DNA from: an uncultured Candidatus Saccharimonadales bacterium
GTDB taxonomy: Bacteria > Patescibacteriota > Saccharimonadia > UBA4664 > SCTI01
DNA length: 64,000 nt
Direction: 5' to 3'
Assembly: GCA_964632435.1 (NCBI GenBank)
Contig: CAZWEJ010000001.1
Location: 1,052-65,051 of the forward strand
Shown: piece after piece, positions 10,726 to 54,382 of the stretch
Layout: each line of letters begins with the position of its first letter
Position numbering within the stretch: position 1 is the stretch's first letter
The notes under the pieces: generated by a model
The model's input: the letters and a program-made list of their open reading frames with translations, nothing else
What the model was told of the DNA's origin: nothing
The model's database searches: none
Program-made: the position numbers and the translations under genes

Positions 10726-10742
10726 GTCCATAAAAAGCGAAA

Positions 10743-10790
10743 TCCCCCGCCATAAATCCGCGATGCGGAAGTTTGACGGGGGTTTCGTTC
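10743..10790. terminator. Nested GC hairpin between convergent pepF and the minus-strand small gene; candidate bidirectional terminator
   Basis: cccccg...cggggg outer stem enclosing ccgcgatgcgg, followed by tttcgtt. Confidence 0.4.
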
Positions 10791-10801
10791 ACATCAGGGT
10801 C

Positions 10802-11083
10802 CTAGAACCCGAAGACTCGCCGGGCACGTACCCAGCCACTGGGAAATGCGATGGCGATGAGGACTACCCCGAAGAGGGTGGCGCCGATAGCCATGAAGTC
10901 CCTGATGTTGGAGACGGCGTAGAGCCCCTCGTACATGAACAGCTTTGCAGCTGCCCAGCAGAAGAGGATTCCGAGAACGCCGAGGACGAGCCTGAAGACG
11001 TTCGCGGGGCAGACCCACTCCTTGATGCCAATCGCCCAGATGGCGATAAAGGCGAAAAAACGCTGGATGGCGGGGGACACCAT
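10802..11083 (-). CDS. Small 3-TM membrane protein encoded in a GC-rich islet
   Basis: Three predicted TM helices; RBS AGGAGG 6-8 nt upstream of the ATG on the minus strand; local GC is far above the surrounding genome. Confidence 0.5.
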   Translation of the reverse strand: MVSPAIQRFFAFIAIWAIGIKEWVCPANVFRLVLGVLGILFCWAAAKLFMYEGLYAVSNIRDFMAIGATLFGVVLIAIAFPSGWVRARRVFGF

Positions 11084-11275
11084 TTCCTCCTGTAGTGAAC
11101 GAAAGTTGCAGCCAAAACGTATTTCTACGTCAAGGCATGATCAGTATAGTACCACTTCTGTAAGTATTTGTCAATACTCTTATGCTTCTTGGCCAACAGA
11201 TTGACATAAGGGGAAAAGTGCTCTATCGTTTTGGGCGAGAAGTGGAATACGCCACGTCTTGATCCAAGGGGTTTC

Positions 11276-11491
11276 ATGAAACGTATCTGTAAGCTGGTAT
11301 TCGTCCTTCTGGCCGCTTGGTTGGCATATCTTGGTATCGAGGCTCACCGCTTCAATCGTAGGGAGAGAAGGGCTCGCGGCTTCAAGCCGAAAAGCTTCTT
11401 CGCTCTAGATTCCAACGGTCGGCTCAGCGAAGTGGATGTCGATAATTTCCTCCATATGACTGCCGTCCTCGACCCCACGGAGGTGCCCTGA
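11276..11491 (+). CDS. Small single-TM protein (GC-rich islet)
   Basis: ATG preceded by AAGGGG; TM helix ICKLVFVLLAAWLAYLGI; overlaps the next ORF by TGATG. Confidence 0.35.
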   Translation: MKRICKLVFVLLAAWLAYLGIEAHRFNRRERRARGFKPKSFFALDSNGRLSEVDVDNFLHMTAVLDPTEVP

Positions 11492-11700
11492 TGGACGAAA
11501 CCTGCCACTACTGCGGTTCGATCCCTCATGCAATTGCCTGCCCCGAGCACCCTTCGAATGGCACCGGTCACCGCCTCCACATGAGGAGATGGGAGGCTGG
11601 GCGAAGGGAAGCGGCGAATGGAGGGATCTGTCGCAAGCCCGATGACCCGACCTACTGTCTCGGGTTCTACTGGCCGCACGAAGAGGAGGATGCAGCATGA
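11491..11700 (+). CDS. Small Cys/His-rich protein (possible zinc ribbon)
   Basis: CHYCGSIPHAIACPEH motif; coupled TGATG overlap with the upstream ORF; GC-rich composition makes the frame call uncertain. Confidence 0.3.
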   Translation: MDETCHYCGSIPHAIACPEHPSNGTGHRLHMRRWEAGRREAANGGICRKPDDPTYCLGFYWPHEEEDAA

Positions 11701-11858
11701 GCCTCCTCAATACGCCCCATCACGGCAAGCATCCCGCCTGTCTTGGTGGGGCGCTTGTCTTTTAAACCTTTCTGAGTTAGAATAACGGTATTGAAGTCGG
11801 CCAGCGGGTCGACTAAATTTTTGCCAAACAATTGAATAACAACAGAATAGGAACATAA

Positions 11859-39700: not shown

Positions 39701-40033
39701 TTGATTACGCCCTTAGAGGAGTTCGACTGGGAAGAGATTTTTGCCGAGCTGGCTAGAAACCACCTGGTTTCACAAGATCAGGCCATTAGGCTCACATCTT
39801 CCAGGGCTACCTCAACTGGGAAAATCTATACGCTCTGCTGCTTTCATGACGAAAGAACTCCTTCGTTGGTGTTCTGGCCAAACTCGGGGTTCAAGTGCCA
39901 CGGGTGCGGCGAATGCGGGCGCAGCAAGCTGGACTTTCTCGAATGCCTTGGCATTTCCGAAAAAGAGATCGATCTAATGGTCGATTCCATCAACTCAAGG
40001 TCGGTCAATCAAAACCAACTCAGGCTTCTTTGA
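39701..40033 (+). CDS. Stand-alone CHC2-type (DnaG primase-like) zinc-finger protein, 110 aa
   Basis: TTG start with RBS AAAGGAGG. The motif CCFHDERTPSLVF...FKCHGCGECG matches the zf-CHC2 signature (CPFHxExTPSF...FxCFGCGxxG). No TOPRIM domain is attached. Confidence 0.6.
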   Translation: MITPLEEFDWEEIFAELARNHLVSQDQAIRLTSSRATSTGKIYTLCCFHDERTPSLVFWPNSGFKCHGCGECGRSKLDFLECLGISEKEIDLMVDSINSRSVNQNQLRLL

Positions 40034-41439: not shown

Positions 41440-41763
41440 ATGGCTGAAAAAGACGCACCTAAACAACGAATCCGAATTAGATTAAAGGCTTACGATAACA
41501 AGGTTATCGATCAGTCGGCTAAGCAGATCCTAGATACTGCTACACGTACCGGCGCAAAGGTAGCGGGGCCAATCCCGCTGCCTACAGATCGAAATACCAC
41601 CACTGTTATTAAGAGCCCTCACATCTTTAAAAAGTCTCGAGAACAGTTCGAGATGCGGGTTCATAAGCGGCTGATTGATATCACCGAGCCGACAGCAAAA
41701 ACTGTCGACTCGCTGATGAATCTCAATCTTCCAGCTGGCGTCGACATCGAAATCAAAATGTAA
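41440..41763 (+). CDS. rpsJ: 30S ribosomal protein S10
   Basis: Conserved S10 sequence (IRIRLKAYD...). Confidence 0.97.
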
Positions 41764-41774
41764 CACTAGAAACT

Positions 41775-41794
41775 GCCCCGAAAGGGGCGTTTTT
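41775..41794 (+). terminator. Rho-independent terminator after rpsJ
   Basis: gcccc-gaaa-ggggc stem followed by gttttt. Confidence 0.7.
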
Positions 41795-41822
41795 AGTATA
41801 AAAGTCGTGTATAATTAACCAC

Positions 41823-42158
41823 ATGGTTAAACGAACAGATTTAAACACAGTTTTTCGATGTATATCCGATCCAACCCGGAGGCACATACTTGAGCATCTC
41901 TCCGAGATGGCGAGGCCGATGAGCGTGTTGGAGCTCGCGGAACCTCACAATATGAGCCTCCCCGCTGTGTCCAAGCATCTTCGCTATCTTGAGAAGGCCG
42001 GGCTTGTGAAAAGGACCGTCAAAGGTCGTGTTCATTCTTTCGAAATTATTCAGGAGCCTCTCAAGATGGCAGAGGCGTGGGTCGTATATTACCTGCAGTG
42101 TTGGAATAAGCAGCTTGATGTTATAGAGAGTACAAAAAAGGAAAGCAGCATCTTCTAA
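41823..42158 (+). CDS. ArsR/SmtB-family winged-helix transcriptional regulator
   Basis: HTH region ...TRRHILEHLSE..MSVLELAEPHNMSLPAVSKHLRYLEKAGLVKR; a TATAAT box lies just upstream. Confidence 0.8.
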   Translation: MVKRTDLNTVFRCISDPTRRHILEHLSEMARPMSVLELAEPHNMSLPAVSKHLRYLEKAGLVKRTVKGRVHSFEIIQEPLKMAEAWVVYYLQCWNKQLDVIESTKKESSIF

Positions 42159-42173
42159 CTTGTTATGGTTGCG

Positions 42174-42196
42174 TTTTGGCCTCGGTAAAGCCAAAA
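42174..42196 (+). promoter_or_regulatory. Perfect 7-bp inverted repeat TTTTGGC-N9-GCCAAAA between the ArsR gene and the downstream cassette (candidate operator)
   Basis: Not followed by a T-run, so it is unlikely to be a terminator. Confidence 0.3.
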
Positions 42197-42222
42197 TGAT
42201 ATCAACAAAGGGGTAGAAGTAG

Positions 42223-42726
42223 ATGGATTTTCAGGAAGCGATCATTTTTGTAAGTGCAGTCATTATTGTTGTGGCTGCTGGGGTTGTCCTTGGTGCGGTT
42301 ATACGGGGCAGGAGCATCAAGCAATCAGAGAAGGTTGGCTTAATTCAACAGCGCAAAGCGGAGTTATATTCGGAAATTATTGGCGCCCTCGACACAATAG
42401 TTGAAGACAATGATCAAAAAAAACAGTGGTTTATCCACCGATACTACCAAGCTCTAGTCTATGCGCCCGACAATGTGATTGCTTCCATTAATAGGTATCT
42501 TGATGGTGTTACAGCAATAGGAGCGGATCTCTCGCCAGACAAGATAATGGAGCTTCGCGGTAAAGCCGTAAGGTCAATGAGAGCAGATATCCAGGGATAC
42601 CTGAATGCTAAAACACGGCTTCCACTCCCTGAACTTTATCGAATAGAGGTTAAGGCGCCAGCACATCCGGCTCTAAAAGAAGATTCGAAAAAGAGTAAAC
42701 AAAAACCCGTTGCTCAGGAAAAATAG
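42223..42726 (+). CDS. Membrane-anchored hypothetical protein (N-terminal TM, about 140-aa soluble domain)
   Basis: TM helix AIIFVSAVIIVVAAGVVLGAVI; RBS AAAGGGG upstream. Confidence 0.5.
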   Translation: MDFQEAIIFVSAVIIVVAAGVVLGAVIRGRSIKQSEKVGLIQQRKAELYSEIIGALDTIVEDNDQKKQWFIHRYYQALVYAPDNVIASINRYLDGVTAIGADLSPDKIMELRGKAVRSMRADIQGYLNAKTRLPLPELYRIEVKAPAHPALKEDSKKSKQKPVAQEK

Positions 42727-42784
42727 TTTGCACCAGGTAAGCTTAAGAGGTATATTCAAATCAAAACCATAAAAAGAGGGAAAA

Positions 42785-42904
42785 ATGGCGGTAAAAAAAT
42801 GCACCAACAAAAACTGTAATGCGAATGTAAAGGTTTGCAAGGACAAAAGCTGTAGCGCTAAAGGCCCACACGGTCATTGTTCAAACGGGCATAAAGTAAA
42901 GTAG
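42785..42904 (+). CDS. 39-aa Cys/His-rich peptide (MAVKKCTNKNCNANVKVCKDKSCSAKGPHGHCSNGHKVK)
   Basis: My own translation; RBS AGAGGG 5 nt upstream; two CxxxxC pairs plus HGHC; below the 60-aa cut-off of the ORF track. Confidence 0.4.
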   Translation: MAVKKCTNKNCNANVKVCKDKSCSAKGPHGHCSNGHKVK

Positions 42905-42911
42905 GCCTCCT

Positions 42912-43373
42912 TTGGAAAAGCGAAAGGTCAAACGACCGGCAGGCTCGACGCGACAACAGATTGTAAAGAGATACAACTCTCGGGCTTGGTATCAGCTGCC
43001 TGATTGGGCTCAACAGTTTGTTGTTAGTGCCGCTCCTTGGTTCACTGGTCTGATCGTGGCTGTCTTGACGCCTGCAGCGGCACTTGCTCTGGTATTAGGG
43101 TTCCACTCGTTACCCCTTGAAATTATTGGGGTACCTGGGACTGAGAATGATTTTGGCTTAGCTGCATTTATTCTATTAGTAAAAGTTGCTCTACTAGCGC
43201 TAGCTCTAAAGCCCCTTTACAGGAGGCAAGCGAGGGGTTGGACTTACTTAATTTTGGCATCATTTGTCCATTTGCTTCACAGTATATGGTTGCAGCACCC
43301 CGTTTCGGGAACACTTATTTGTTTAGGGACTCTATATCTGTATAGCCAGGTACGTCGCTGGTACACGCAGTAG
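42912..43373 (+). CDS. Multi-TM membrane protein, paralog 1 of a tandem pair
   Basis: Shares the YQLP...PW... and GW motifs and overall TM topology with the next gene. Confidence 0.55.
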   Translation: MEKRKVKRPAGSTRQQIVKRYNSRAWYQLPDWAQQFVVSAAPWFTGLIVAVLTPAAALALVLGFHSLPLEIIGVPGTENDFGLAAFILLVKVALLALALKPLYRRQARGWTYLILASFVHLLHSIWLQHPVSGTLICLGTLYLYSQVRRWYTQ

Positions 43374-43430
43374 TCTTGCAGGTAAAAAGCATAAGCGGTA
43401 TACTTCGCTTAAGTAATAGAAGGATGCCAA

Positions 43431-43880
43431 ATGGCCACCTCAAACCCCTTAAATAGTATAGTAAGCTCTCTTGAGCCATATTTCACAACAAAATCGCCCT
43501 ATCAGCTGCCGAAGAACATCAGAGAGTTTTTAGTAAAATACATACCTTGGATTAATGTTGTCATCCTGGTAATACTGGCTCCAGGAATTTTGCTCGCCCT
43601 TGGCATAGGAACTGCAACTCTACCATTTAGTGGAATTGCAGGCGTCGACTCCGCAACAGGGTTAACCATCACCCTCCTTGCGCTTGTAATACAAGTTGTA
43701 TTGATGATCGCAGCGCTACCTGGTTTGTTCAACCGTAAAATCAGTGGTTGGAATCTTTCATTTTATGCTGTCATATTCAATCTTGCTTATAGCCTACTCA
43801 ATTTCCAGATTCTAAGTGGGCTTCTTGGGGCTTTGATCGGAGCTTACGTTCTATTCCAGATAAAGTCTTATTACAAATAG
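43431..43880 (+). CDS. Multi-TM membrane protein, paralog 2 of a tandem pair
   Basis: Clear collinear similarity to 42912-43373 (YQLP, PW, LP..I.GV, GW, N...N.Q.LSG). Confidence 0.55.
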   Translation: MATSNPLNSIVSSLEPYFTTKSPYQLPKNIREFLVKYIPWINVVILVILAPGILLALGIGTATLPFSGIAGVDSATGLTITLLALVIQVVLMIAALPGLFNRKISGWNLSFYAVIFNLAYSLLNFQILSGLLGALIGAYVLFQIKSYYK

Positions 43881-43884
43881 CCTA

Positions 43885-44130
43885 ATGGCCAAGAAAAACG
43901 CTACAACCGAATATGATAGTGTTTATTTCTTAAAAATTTTAATCTATCTGATTCTTGGAACAGTTTGGCTCTCAAATGGAGAAAGTCGAACCCTGCCAGT
44001 AGGCTTAATAGTGGGTATTGTGGCTGTTCAGCACGAAAAATTACAAATTGACCGAAAAATTGAGTACGCACTATTACTAATTGGAACTATTTTAGGCCTG
44101 GTAGGCATTGGTTTAACAATAAATTTGTAG
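43885..44130 (+). CDS. Small 2-TM membrane protein
   Basis: Two hydrophobic helices; tightly spaced after the paralog pair. Confidence 0.45.
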   Translation: MAKKNATTEYDSVYFLKILIYLILGTVWLSNGESRTLPVGLIVGIVAVQHEKLQIDRKIEYALLLIGTILGLVGIGLTINL

Positions 44131-44155
44131 CCGCAACATAATCAATTTCTCTATC

Positions 44156-44172
44156 TGTTGACAGATGTGTCA
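44156..44172 (+). promoter_or_regulatory. Promoter for rplC and downstream genes, with a palindromic TTGACA-gatg-TGTCAA element overlapping the -35
   Basis: TTGACA -35, 17-bp spacer, TTATAT -10; the palindrome is the reverse complement of the element at 28877-28893. Confidence 0.45.
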
Positions 44173-44299
44173 AAACTCTGTTATATTTACTTGGTAACTT
44201 TTGCTCAATTTAGAGCTTAGAACTAGGAGTTGATCTGGTCCGTGAGCCGCGGATACCGCTCGAATCCTAGAATTTGTTTTGTTTAATATAAGGAGTGGC

Positions 44300-44938
44300 A
44301 TGAAAGCCTTGCTCGGCCGAAAACTTGGAATGACCCAGCTGTTTGACGACAACGGCAATGTTGCGCGTGTCACTATAGTAGAGGCAGGCCCTTGCGTGGT
44401 TACTCAAGTGCGAACTGGCGAAAACGACGGCTACCAAGCTGTACAAATTGGCTTTGGTAAGCACAAAAACGCTAGCAAGCCGCAGGAAGGCCACGCTACA
44501 TTTGATGGCGTAACTCCTCGTCATATCAAAGAAGTTCGTATGGACGATACCGTTGTAAATGTAGAAGAAGTTGAAGGCGACAACAAGCTCAAGGTTGGCG
44601 ACAAGCTGGATGTCAGTATTTTTGAAGTTGGAGACAAGATCCAGGTAACTGGTACTAGTAAAGGTAAGGGGTTTGCAGGAACTGTAAAGCGTCACAACTT
44701 CAACACTGGTCCAAAAACACACGGTTCACATAATTATCGTCAACCAGGTTCAATTGGTTCAGGATACCCACAGCACGTATTCAAGGGAATTAAGATGGCC
44801 GGTCGAATGGGTGGCGAGAAGGTTACTACAAAGGGGCTCAAGATTGTCTCAGTTGATGCCGAGAACAACCTGATCGCTATAAAGGGCGCAGTTCCTGGGC
44901 CGCGTAAGTCAATCGTTATGATCCGAGGCGCGAAGTAA
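44300..44938 (+). CDS. rplC: 50S ribosomal protein L3
   Basis: ATG at 44300 after AAGGAG; MKALLGRKLGMTQLFDDNGNV... Confidence 0.95.
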   Translation: MKALLGRKLGMTQLFDDNGNVARVTIVEAGPCVVTQVRTGENDGYQAVQIGFGKHKNASKPQEGHATFDGVTPRHIKEVRMDDTVVNVEEVEGDNKLKVGDKLDVSIFEVGDKIQVTGTSKGKGFAGTVKRHNFNTGPKTHGSHNYRQPGSIGSGYPQHVFKGIKMAGRMGGEKVTTKGLKIVSVDAENNLIAIKGAVPGPRKSIVMIRGAK

Positions 44939-54268: not shown

Positions 54269-54382
54269 ATGAAAGTACGCCCCAGCGCAAAAAAGATGTG
54301 TTCTAAGTGCAAAATCGTTCGTCGCGAACGGGTAGTTTACGTTATCTGCGAAAATCCTCGACACAAGCAGAGGCAAGGTTAA
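54269..54382 (+). CDS. rpmJ: 50S ribosomal protein L36
   Basis: My own translation: [37 protein letters not shown]. The stop overlaps the rpsM ATG. Not in the ORF track because it is under 60 aa. Confidence 0.9.

Follow-up and report, generated by a model that had tools for sequence, protein, structure and literature searches.

Between rpsJ and rplC in the window (the whole 64,000-nucleotide stretch of Candidatus Saccharimonadales DNA analyzed here) lies a cassette of membrane-protein genes whose first cistron is an ORF of only 39 codons. An initial annotation of this DNA read the product as a Cys/His-rich peptide and offered a metallothionein-like, zinc-ribbon, or RiPP/bacteriocin identity for it. 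Is this ORF a gene, and if so, what does its product do beside the proteins encoded downstream? The features that bear on the answer are collected in Table 1.

Table 1. Features of the peptide locus and its surroundings (positions within the window)
Feature	Position	Strand	Description	Basis
Terminator-like hairpin and T-run	41774..41789	+	follows rpsJ	conserved in four lineages
ArsR/SmtB-family HTH regulator	41823..42158	+	111 aa; context only	PF01022, NF033788
p167	42223..42726	+	conserved protein with one N-terminal TM helix; abuts the peptide promoter on its 5' side	
Promoter of the peptide operon	42727..42756	+	sigma-70-like, TTTGCA-18-TATATT	promoter scan, alignment
Shine-Dalgarno-like element	42775..42780	+	AGAGGG, 4 nt 5' of the peptide ATG	sequence, conserved
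Peptide CDS	42785..42904	+	39 codons; basic Cys5His3 microprotein	sequence, selection, orthologues, public gene calls
p153	42912..43373	+	153-aa membrane protein, TTG start	four predicted TM helices
p149	43431..43880	+	p153 paralogue (29% identity)	sequence comparison
p81	43885..44130	+	81-aa membrane protein	translation, comparison
Strong promoter-like site	44158..44187	+	TTGACA-18-TATATT with upstream TG; restarts the rplC ribosomal operon	
bL36 (rpmJ)	54269-54382		37 aa; true rpmJ of the window	

A conserved Cys- and His-rich microprotein gene

The ORF, its translation (MAVKKCTNKNCNANVKVCKDKSCSAKGPHGHCSNGHKVK, identical to that originally quoted), and its three His residues (29, 31, and 36) are borne out by the sequence, whereas the Cys residues number five (6, 11, 18, 23, and 32) rather than the six first reported and 7 nt, rather than 8, separate it from the next gene (the stop codon ends at 42904, and the TTG of p153 is at 42912). 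The pattern CxxxxC-x6-CxxxxC plus HGHC is correct for the window lineage, where the full ligand layout is C-x4-C-x6-C-x4-C ... H-x-H-C-x3-H and the paired motifs are CTNKNC and CKDKSC. Cys accounts for 13% of the residues (5/39), with spacings of 4, 6, 4, and 8 and neither CxC nor CC. Among the 187 ATG-initiated ORFs of 30–60 aa in the window, this is the only one with a Cys plus His density of at least 8/39. The peptide is 4.2 kDa, with a pI of 9.7, nine Lys, and a net charge of about +8; it is rich in K, N, S, G, and A, contains no aromatic and almost no hydrophobic residues, and would therefore lack a hydrophobic core.

An in-frame stop five codons upstream makes the ATG at 42785 the sole possible start. 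The good ribosome-binding site claimed for it corresponds to the AGAGGG element, and a purine-rich Shine-Dalgarno-like element precedes the gene in all orthologues (GAGGG in four and AAAGGA in L011; the more distant homologue in the L028 locus has AAGGAG). As the peptide has no signal peptide or TM segment, we take it to be cytoplasmic.

By its pattern of substitution across lineages, the ORF is a genuine, strongly conserved protein-coding gene. Between the window and L005, 17 of 21 nucleotide differences occur at codon position 3 (pN 0.042, pS 0.80, pN/pS 0.05). For the ten pairs among five lineages, pN/pS is 0.03–0.16 with a pS of 0.66–1.0, which places synonymous sites near saturation. The 39-codon frame, its length, and all eight Cys/His residues are retained in these five diverged orthologues; the Cys codons all switch between TGC and TGT yet encode Cys throughout. 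Conservation is even along the full length of the peptide, and many non-ligand residues are also invariant in the five lineages (K4, T7, K9, N10, N12, A13, V15, K16, K19, D20, K21, K26, G30, N34, G35, and K37–K39). The remaining frames at the locus contain stops or have pN > pS, and the constraint on the gene is at least that on its neighbors and close to that on rplC. Frame conservation and the synonymous/nonsynonymous pattern, proposed at the outset as the means of refuting the ORF, thus give a clearly coding outcome. The last four codons show hardly any synonymous change, which fits expectation if they also serve as the ribosome-binding region of p153.

No Rfam match or conserved RNA structure accounting for this conservation was found, and a riboswitch search at the locus was likewise negative. 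When the five orthologous regions are folded together, the consensus structure is weak (−12.6 kcal/mol over 194 nt, with an unfavorable covariation term) and leaves the TTG start of p153 unoccluded.

The ORF was initially described as unannotated and liable to be missed by standard gene calling, but its exact product has been called on at least 10 metagenome contigs. The loci L001–L009 come from assemblies ERZ28656156, ERZ724538/44/49, ERZ23795167, and SRR10931991. An NCBI-sourced set contains the same sequence, and IMG lists the homologue from L028 as a "hypothetical protein"; the peptide is uncalled in some gene sets (L011–L013, L015, and L016).

The L028 homologue (MAQAACKSCKAKVEVKACKSASCSVKGAHKHCAKGHKV) is 50% identical to the window peptide in a gapless alignment. 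C6, C18, C23, H29, H31, C32, and H36 are in place, and the second Cys is at position 9 rather than 11, changing the first pair from CX4C in the window lineage to CX2C. With 19 positions identical, the probability that chance alone would place all seven same-position ligands among them is about 0.004. Conservation of Cys spacing among relatives, which had been suggested as a check, holds for the five orthologues, which keep every position, and breaks down in L028 for the one shifted Cys. A single low-coverage variant (P0124) contains H31N.

The peptide matches no described family among those compared, and its distribution within Saccharibacteria is narrow. Searching the peptide and five homologues against Pfam at E ≤ 10 returned only a chance zf-C3H1 match (E 0.67). 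NCBIfam (including SCIFF-type models), PADLOC, and PHROGs gave no matches to the peptide, nor did the PDB, by sequence or by a six-sequence profile. A protein homologue search with the peptide plus one upstream in-frame residue found P0001 only, and phmmer against 1.84 billion representative proteins found only the peptide's own cluster and one spurious 838-aa match. As phmmer at such a query length misses homologues that are 50% identical (L028), the family may be somewhat wider. Degenerate-DNA scans yielded 11 matches in 185,579 species genomes, one of them true, two in metagenome contigs, both identical to the window, and none in viral contigs. Literature searches on the peptide sequence and on Saccharibacteria metallothioneins found nothing relevant.

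A membrane-protein cassette between rpsJ and rplC

The hairpin after rpsJ sets the cassette apart from the upstream ribosomal genes. From its −35 element to about position 42768, the peptide promoter is near-invariant in four lineages with saturated synonymous sites, and the same promoter occurs directly before the p153 homologue in L010 and L032, both of which lack the peptide. The equivalent cassette of L010 also contains a thioredoxin gene.

Immediately downstream of the peptide, p153 is basic at its N-terminus and contains a cluster of conserved His residues (H65, H119, H122, and H128). Its AlphaFold model has a pLDDT of 86, and fold searches with this model returned generic four-helix bundles only. 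Applying the positive-inside rule to the model, the His cluster is predicted to face the outer side of the membrane, so direct contact with a cytoplasmic peptide would not be expected. The N-terminus of p153 is strongly basic, as is the peptide, which is not favorable to simple electrostatic pairing.

The paralogue p149 belongs to a widespread family named "chromate transporter" by NCBI; it lacks conserved Cys and His residues, and the L028 locus has no copy of it. A Chromate_transp domain is absent from both p153 and p149 according to Pfam (E ≤ 1) and NCBIfam, and the name has no model support for the His-bearing subfamily. Neither p149 nor p167 matches any family in Pfam or NCBIfam. The best-conserved member of the cassette is p81 (62% identity to L028), and the peptide, p153, and p81 together form its conserved core. 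No Cys-rich N-terminal fusions were found among 122 membrane-protein relatives, and the neighborhoods of p149-type relatives (Spirosoma, L033/L034) contain no informative conserved neighbors.

In five lineages, the peptide stop and the TTG start of p153 are 6–9 nt apart; in loci without the peptide (L010, L029, and L032), or with it 17 nt away (L028), the start codon of p153 is ATG. Because the TTG start lies just 7 nt past the peptide stop in the window, p153 is probably translationally coupled to the peptide. Every locus with the peptide has a p153-subfamily gene directly downstream and p81 in the same locus. The p153 subfamily occurs without the peptide in L010, L029, and L032, so p153 does not need the peptide, and the existence of related cassettes lacking it indicates that the peptide is dispensable. 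Among p153 residues, the AWYQLPDW motif has SWYN/RWYE variants at loci that lack the peptide.

The peptide thus heads a transcription unit of its own, which runs from the promoter through the peptide, p153, and p149 to p81 and has an expected 5' end near 42763. Ribosomes that finish at the peptide stop would probably re-initiate at the weak TTG of p153, so that the peptide and p153 would be made together, and the peptide most likely assists or regulates the p153/p81 membrane proteins as their partner.

Probable metal binding and the alternatives to it

For the peptide itself, AlphaFold yields no confident fold (pLDDT 52.7), and the prediction is too poor to judge ligand geometry. Zinc-ribbon models match neither the peptide nor its homologues, and the spacing is unlike that of a textbook zinc ribbon, with six residues between the CX4C pairs and H31 adjacent to C32. 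The two pairs, four Cys in all, are invariant in five lineages; the first pair can be spaced as CX4C or CX2C, a variability known from metal knuckles. Because Cys and His are its most conserved feature, even across the ligand shift in L028, metal binding is the most reasonable role for the peptide; a change from CX4C to CX2C that keeps the other seven ligands in place fits chelation. The fold is most likely metal-dependent, most probably involving one or two Zn(II)-type ions and the eight invariant ligands. These could divide into C6/C11/C18/C23 and H29/H31/C32/H36, with a cross-braced arrangement equally possible.

Our main reading is an orphan, probably metal-binding microprotein, encoded by the first cistron of its operon and most likely acting as an accessory or regulatory partner of p153/p81. 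Its coding status, the purifying selection on it, the conservation of its ligands, its place in the operon, and its phyletic pattern are shown, whereas metal binding, translational coupling, and interaction with p153/p81 are inferred, and we hold the reading tentatively, at a probability of roughly 0.45. There are precedents for its parts: prokaryotes do have small zinc-finger microproteins (PMC6562870, PMC11241148), some of which, when predicted as such, prove metal-free or contain other metals (PMC11241148), and in Methanosarcina mazei the small cytoplasmic protein sP36 regulates the membrane transporter AmtB1 (PMC10714827). A more specific version, that the peptide represents an undescribed metal-binding family and is a cytoplasmic sensor, gate, or metal acceptor for p81 and the hitherto unstudied p153 subfamily with its predicted outward His cluster, is doubtful. 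If this version is right, the cassette would constitute a minimal metal-uptake or metal-sensing module placed between rpsJ and rplC in genome-reduced Saccharibacteria.

Five other roles for the product, or for the ORF, can be considered in falling order of likelihood. The first follows the initial annotation in its SmtB/SmtA analogy: the peptide would be a metallothionein-like buffer or chaperone for Zn, Cd, or Cu that metal de-represses via ArsR/SmtB. Its makeup is appropriate, being small, aromatic-free, and rich in K, N, S, G, and A with eight possible ligands per 39 residues, a ligand density resembling that of SmtA. Moreover, some 630 bp upstream and in the same orientation lies an ArsR/SmtB-family gene, whose product has a winged-helix HTH_5 domain that scores above the curated cut-off (PF01022, 2.1e-12, 47.1 bits where 22 is required; NF033788, 71.5 bits where 55 is required). 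However, inspection of this regulator reveals no alpha-3 Cys, no C-terminal-helix His, and no alpha-5 His/Asp/Glu ligands; it contains two Cys, one of which (C93) is Q in L011. Its putative operator palindrome (TTAACCAC/ATGGTTAA) is confined to the start codon of the regulator gene itself; the peptide promoter was searched for another copy without success, and the L028 locus contains the peptide but no ArsR gene. The peptide, with its modest Cys content and no CxC or CC, matches nothing in the bacterial metallothionein Pfam model, NCBIfam, or the PDB, and its gene has a promoter of its own and is tied to membrane-protein genes. Transcription reading through from upstream may nevertheless reach the peptide. 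The analogy is not supported, and we consider this role unlikely.

No likelier is a basic zinc-knuckle protein for nucleic acid or the ribosome, whose position in the str/S10 region would reflect a role in translation. The charge and pI of the peptide, its size and ligand type (which resemble those of zinc-binding L36), and its location between rpsJ and rplC would all be in keeping with this. Against it, the rpsJ terminator, the peptide's own promoter, and the separate rplC promoter isolate the gene, which is linked instead to membrane-protein genes; L36 and a zinc-type S14 are encoded elsewhere in the window, and ribosomal-protein models in Pfam and NCBIfam are unmatched. The same cassette occurs without the peptide in L010 and L032, and the pattern scan of 185,579 species genomes yielded a single true match.

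It is also improbable that the ORF is a regulatory upstream ORF, responding to Cys/His supply or providing coupling for p153-p149-p81, with an irrelevant product. Short and placed first in the operon, it ends 7 nt before the next start, a TTG, and Cys-rich upstream ORFs are cysteine-responsive attenuators in mycobacteria (PMC4633059; bioRxiv 10.1101/834739). Here, though, the Cys codons are scattered 4–8 codons apart with no consecutive tract, no conserved RNA structure hides the p153 start, and nothing obvious connects the downstream genes with Cys or His metabolism; many non-ligand residues, moreover, are invariant over five lineages at saturated synonymous divergence.

A thiol redox switch, in which the CX4C pairs would close into reversible disulfides that signal or buffer oxidative stress on behalf of the membrane proteins, seems quite improbable. 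The two conserved Cys pairs and the thioredoxin gene of the L010 cassette lend it some appeal, but the peptide is missing from L010 itself, a disulfide switch gives no account of the invariant His triad, and the shift to CX2C in L028 suits chelation better than a fixed disulfide loop.

The RiPP or bacteriocin precursor raised initially, which the downstream proteins would export or neutralize, is very improbable. The comparison is invited by a short peptide, rich in Cys, whose gene precedes those of three small membrane proteins, but radical-SAM, lanthipeptide, YcaO, peptidase, and ABC-exporter genes are absent from the Pfam-scanned ORFs (393–28175 plus the cassette), which are housekeeping or have no assignment, and the ORFs to either side are annotated at the locus as genes for RNA polymerase and ribosomal proteins. 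The earlier remark that no modification or export genes were obvious agrees with this; none occurs in the scanned ORFs, L001–L016, or L028. Furthermore, the peptide has no leader/core division or cleavage motif, is evenly conserved, and matches no NCBIfam model.

Finally, a chance ORF in a non-coding p153 leader, as its short, lysine-rich, AT-rich sequence and its omission from several gene sets might have hinted, is rejected by a substitution pattern that is decisively coding in this frame and in no other.

In Saccharibacteria and other CPR bacteria, genomes are tiny, many genes have no assignment, and hardly any work exists on the small proteins. The peptide offers a clean, well-supported case of an orphan microprotein that is as strongly constrained as a ribosomal protein, with an obvious metal-binding hypothesis (five Cys, three His) and a candidate partner in p153/p81. 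That hypothesis is cheap to test, because the peptide is short enough for chemical synthesis. If the partnership with p153/p81 is true, it would also give an initial point of entry to the His-bearing subfamily and to the larger membrane-protein family, widespread in Patescibacteria, that includes it. At present the finding is solid but modest: the small-protein family is new, but its general type is familiar and its distribution very narrow.

Comparison with known systems

Like SmtA/BmtA with SmtB, the peptide is a small Cys/His-rich protein (aromatic-free in this case) with an ArsR/SmtB-family gene nearby. It differs from SmtA/BmtA in its lower Cys content, its lack of CxC/CC and of a metallothionein-model match, and its own promoter, from which the ArsR palindrome is absent; the neighboring regulator differs from SmtB in that the known sensor residues are missing on inspection and the gene is not conserved with the peptide.

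In Escherichia coli, MntS acts on MntP. The peptide resembles this pair and sP36/AmtB1 (PMC10714827) as a dispensable soluble microprotein proposed to act on a membrane protein, whereas neither sP36 nor MntS is Cys/His-rich or translationally coupled to its target. With the polycysteine leader ORFs of mycobacteria (PMC4633059; bioRxiv 10.1101/834739), the peptide gene shares a short Cys-rich first ORF and a close next gene. In those leaders, however, the Cys codons are consecutive, the RBS is sequestered in an RNA duplex, and the genes that follow belong to Cys metabolism; the peptide locus shows none of this, and in the peptide the entire amino-acid sequence is constrained.

The ribosomal protein bL36, whose universal single-copy gene is placed next to infA/rpsM, is of similar size, strongly basic, equipped with Cys/His ligands, and encoded in a ribosomal gene cluster. 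Its ligands follow CX2C-X12-C-X4-H, there is no homology, and the peptide matches no Pfam or NCBIfam L36 model; the peptide also belongs to a separate transcription unit and is patchy rather than universal in distribution.

[quoted passage not shown] Both are cytoplasmic, with roles that are accessory and non-essential (as predicted for the peptide), and in both the metal content is unpredictable from sequence or AlphaFold. No sequence relationship between them is detectable. While its length falls within the range of that group, the peptide has no CPXCG/CXCG and instead contains CX4C pairs (CX2C in L028) 6–8 residues apart. It is further distinguished by a His3Cys tail, by its bacterial (Saccharimonadales) origin, and by its place as the first cistron of a membrane-protein operon.

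A conserved Cys/His-rich coding sequence

The observation made in the initial annotation was confirmed, apart from a miscount of cysteines: the 39-codon translation, MAVKKCTNKNCNANVKVCKDKSCSAKGPHGHCSNGHKVK, was reproduced exactly, with five Cys (positions 6, 11, 18, 23, and 32) instead of six and three His (29, 31, and 36). The ATG is the only possible start, as the frame is closed by a stop five codons upstream, and an AGAGGG Shine-Dalgarno-like element 4 nt ahead of it bears out the good ribosome-binding site described; the ORF and the next gene are 7 nt apart, not 8. The peptide had also been called unannotated and likely to be missed, but gene callers predicted the exact product on at least 10 metagenome contigs, the exact sequence occurs within an NCBI-sourced set, and one homologue is an IMG "hypothetical protein". 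The product (4.2 kDa, pI 9.7) contains nine Lys, no aromatics, and almost no hydrophobic residues, and its Cys+His density is matched by no other ORF among the 187 ATG-ORFs of 30–60 aa in the window. Elsewhere in the window, a 69-aa Cys/His-rich ORF (MDETCHYCGSIPHAIACPEHPSNGTGHRLHMRRWEAG...) lies inside an otherwise ORF-poor gap of ~1.1 kb upstream of nusA.

Orthologous loci were gathered through exact-sequence look-ups and homologues of the downstream gene, and five distinct versions of the peptide were compared (the window and, from other assemblies or genomes, loci L005, L016, L014/L015, and L011-13). Each has 39 codons and retains all eight Cys and His residues. In the window–L005 comparison, codon position 3 accounts for 17 of the 21 nucleotide differences (pN 0.042, pS 0.80), while the other frames of the region, on both strands, contain stops or have pN > pS; across all ten version pairs, pN/pS is 0.03–0.16. 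TGC and TGT are swapped at each Cys codon, with Cys always kept, and constraint on the peptide equals that on rplC and exceeds that on most of its neighbors in the inserted cassette for the same genome pairs. The region has no Rfam match and no conserved RNA structure was found in it, so RNA offers no other reason for the conservation. The proposed refutation test (conservation of the frame and the synonymous/nonsynonymous pattern) came out for coding sequence under purifying selection, and the peptide is almost certainly a real, functional protein-coding gene; a chance ORF, refuted by the coding-type substitution pattern in the window–L005 pair and among all five versions, has a negligible probability.

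At the available sensitivity, the family has a very narrow distribution, within Saccharimonadales. A phmmer search of 1.84 billion representative proteins returned the peptide's own cluster alone, and of 11 matches to a degenerate DNA pattern for HGHCxNGHK across 185,579 species genomes, a single one was genuine, in an uncultured Candidatus Saccharimonadales MAG and on the same contig as L014. A looser DNA pattern retrieved two metagenome contigs, both identical to the window, and had zero matches in viral contigs. The peptide has no match in Pfam, NCBIfam, PADLOC, PHROGs, or PDB (sequence and profile), and full-text literature searches did not find its sequence. The 50%-identical peptide of L028 escaped phmmer, so more distant members could exist undetected. 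The peptide represents a new orphan family whose general type is familiar: small, Cys/His-rich, and probably metal-binding.

The inserted cassette and its membrane proteins

The window contains a Saccharimonadales-type str/S10 ribosomal region with six genes inserted between rpsJ and rplC. A terminator-like hairpin 3' of rpsJ and a strong promoter-like site 5' of rplC indicate that the insert is transcriptionally separate from the ribosomal genes. The rpsJ–rplC junction (window, L010, L011, L028, and L032) is a variable cargo site in the clade, with differing combinations of ArsR, GNAT acetyltransferase, histidine phosphatase, thioredoxin, MIP aquaporin, DUF308, p167, p153, p149, and p81 directly after rpsJ. 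Between fusA and tuf lies a stand-alone 110-aa ORF; L014 has a called counterpart of 109 aa in that position.

Features of the window discussed in the text (p names give ORF length in aa)
Feature	Position	Strand	Remark
Gap upstream of nusA	10726-11858		
69-aa Cys/His-rich ORF	11491-11700	+	
110-aa ORF	39701-40033	+	DnaG-type CHC2 zinc-ribbon (PF01807, E 7e-07)
rpsJ	41440-41763		
rpsJ–rplC junction	41764-44278		
TATAAT	41810-41815		directly 5' of palindrome
Palindrome	41815-41830		16 bp; encloses ArsR ATG at 41823
ArsR/SmtB-family regulator	41823-42158		
p167	42223-42726		one N-terminal TM helix
Sigma-70-like promoter	42727-42756		directly upstream of peptide
Peptide	42785..42904	+	
Last four peptide codons	42898-42904		CAT AAA GTA AAG
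p153	42912-43373		
p149	43431-43880		29%-identical paralogue of p153
p81	43885-44130		
rplC	44279-44938		

Each copy of the peptide lies directly upstream of a gene of the p153 subfamily, with p81 in the same locus. L028 has an aquaporin and a DUF308 protein in place of ArsR, p167, and p149, so the conserved core comprises the peptide, p153, and p81. As p153 homologues also occur without the peptide (L010, L029, and L032), the peptide is an accessory dispensable to p153. The p153 subfamily (relatives P0003-P0007, P0015, and P0021) is a rare branch of a widespread family of ~150-aa membrane proteins. It differs from the common p149-type relatives in its very basic N-terminus and in conserved His (H65, H119, H122, and H128; motif HLxHSxxLQH at 119-128), none of which those relatives have. 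The AlphaFold model of p153 is confident (pLDDT 86), with four long helices after an N-terminal one; fold searches returned generic helical bundles only, and by the positive-inside rule its His would lie on the outer face of the membrane. No Pfam or NCBIfam match stands behind the NCBI name "chromate transporter" for p149-type relatives, and none of 122 relatives of the membrane proteins carries a fused Cys-rich domain.

The promoter of the peptide is nearly invariant in four lineages despite saturated synonymous sites, and a related promoter directly precedes the p153 homologue in the peptide-less L010 and L032, which puts the peptide at the head of a p153-p149-p81 unit, as its first cistron. 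The start of p153 is a TTG 6–9 nt past the peptide stop in the five close lineages, and an ATG in L010, L029, and L032, which lack the peptide, and in L028, where the two genes are 17 nt apart. The last four peptide codons, in the window and orthologues, show almost no synonymous variation, consistent with their also serving as the ribosome-binding region of p153. Such variation is nearly absent from the first four or five codons as well, with saturation elsewhere, which suggests overlapping initiation signals at both ends, one set for the peptide and one for p153. The TTG/ATG pattern and last-codon conservation point to probable translational coupling of the two.

The upstream regulator, for which SmtB/SmtA was initially cited as precedent, is a bona fide ArsR/SmtB-family HTH, but on inspection its alpha-3 region has no Cys and its C-terminal helix no His, judged against the canonical sensor positions of ArsR, SmtB, CadC, and CmtR; in L011, Gln replaces one of the two Cys. 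A conserved palindrome (TTAACCAC-ATGGTTAA) directly after a TATAAT spans its start, suggesting a leaderless, autoregulated transcript; the palindrome is perfect in L016 and L014 (TTAACCATATGGTTAA). The window holds no second copy, and none occurs at the peptide promoter; with ArsR missing from L028, most support for an SmtB/SmtA-like pair is gone. A metallothionein-like buffer under ArsR control is unlikely, as neither the family model nor the motif criteria matched and the regulatory link is unsupported. A basic zinc-knuckle protein that binds RNA or ribosomes is equally unlikely: the peptide's charge, size, and location would allow it, but the peptide is transcribed separately, linked to membrane genes, and patchily distributed, and L36/S14 are intact.

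Ligand pattern and remaining alternatives

A profile search with p153 and its paralogue retrieved 128 relatives, including P0015, one of the few near the 153-aa type (48% identity). Directly upstream of the P0015 gene in L028 is a called 38-aa ORF, MAQAACKSCKAKVEVKACKSASCSVKGAHKHCAKGHKV, which aligns with the window peptide without gaps. C6, C18, C23, H29, H31, C32, and H36 are unmoved, while the second Cys is at 9 instead of 11, converting CX4C to CX2C; the chance of all seven same-position ligands falling within the 19 identical positions is ~0.004. One sliding ligand among fixed ones is the pattern expected of a metal-chelating knuckle; a fixed disulfide loop or a signal of codon content alone fits it less easily. 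A low-coverage variant on a 3.9 kb ENA contig (P0124) has H31N with the remaining ligands intact; H31 may be the least critical ligand, or the change a sequencing error.

The initial interpretation is partly supported. The Cys and His residues probably bind metal, which stands as the best reading of a real gene, while the SmtB/SmtA, zinc-ribbon, and RiPP framings first offered for it are unsupported by the tests run. Of 14 predicted zinc-finger microproteins, five lacked zinc, some of them containing another metal, and AlphaFold2 leaves the metal content of such microproteins undecided (PMC11241148).

A leader ORF sensing Cys/His, as in mycobacteria (PMC4633059; bioRxiv 10.1101/834739), is unlikely, since the Cys codons are scattered, residues other than the ligands are invariant too, and no RBS-sequestering structure was found. 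A thiol redox switch is improbable, and the RiPP or bacteriocin precursor raised initially is very improbable, with no maturase or exporter among Pfam-scanned ORFs or annotated flanking genes.

A proposed accessory microprotein

In the reading we prefer, to which, taken as a whole chain, we give a probability of about 0.45, the peptide would be a cytoplasmic microprotein without a hydrophobic core that folds around a metal held by eight invariant Cys/His ligands, is made together with p153 by termination-reinitiation, and partners the membrane proteins p153/p81 in an accessory or regulatory role. That it works through p153/p81 is itself a tentative proposal. The peptide offers a clean, cheaply testable case. 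Nothing yet suggests an unprecedented mechanism, and precedents of the general kind are found in the zinc-finger microproteins of Haloferax volcanii (PMC6562870) and in the small protein sP36 of Methanosarcina mazei, which targets the AmtB1 transporter (PMC10714827).
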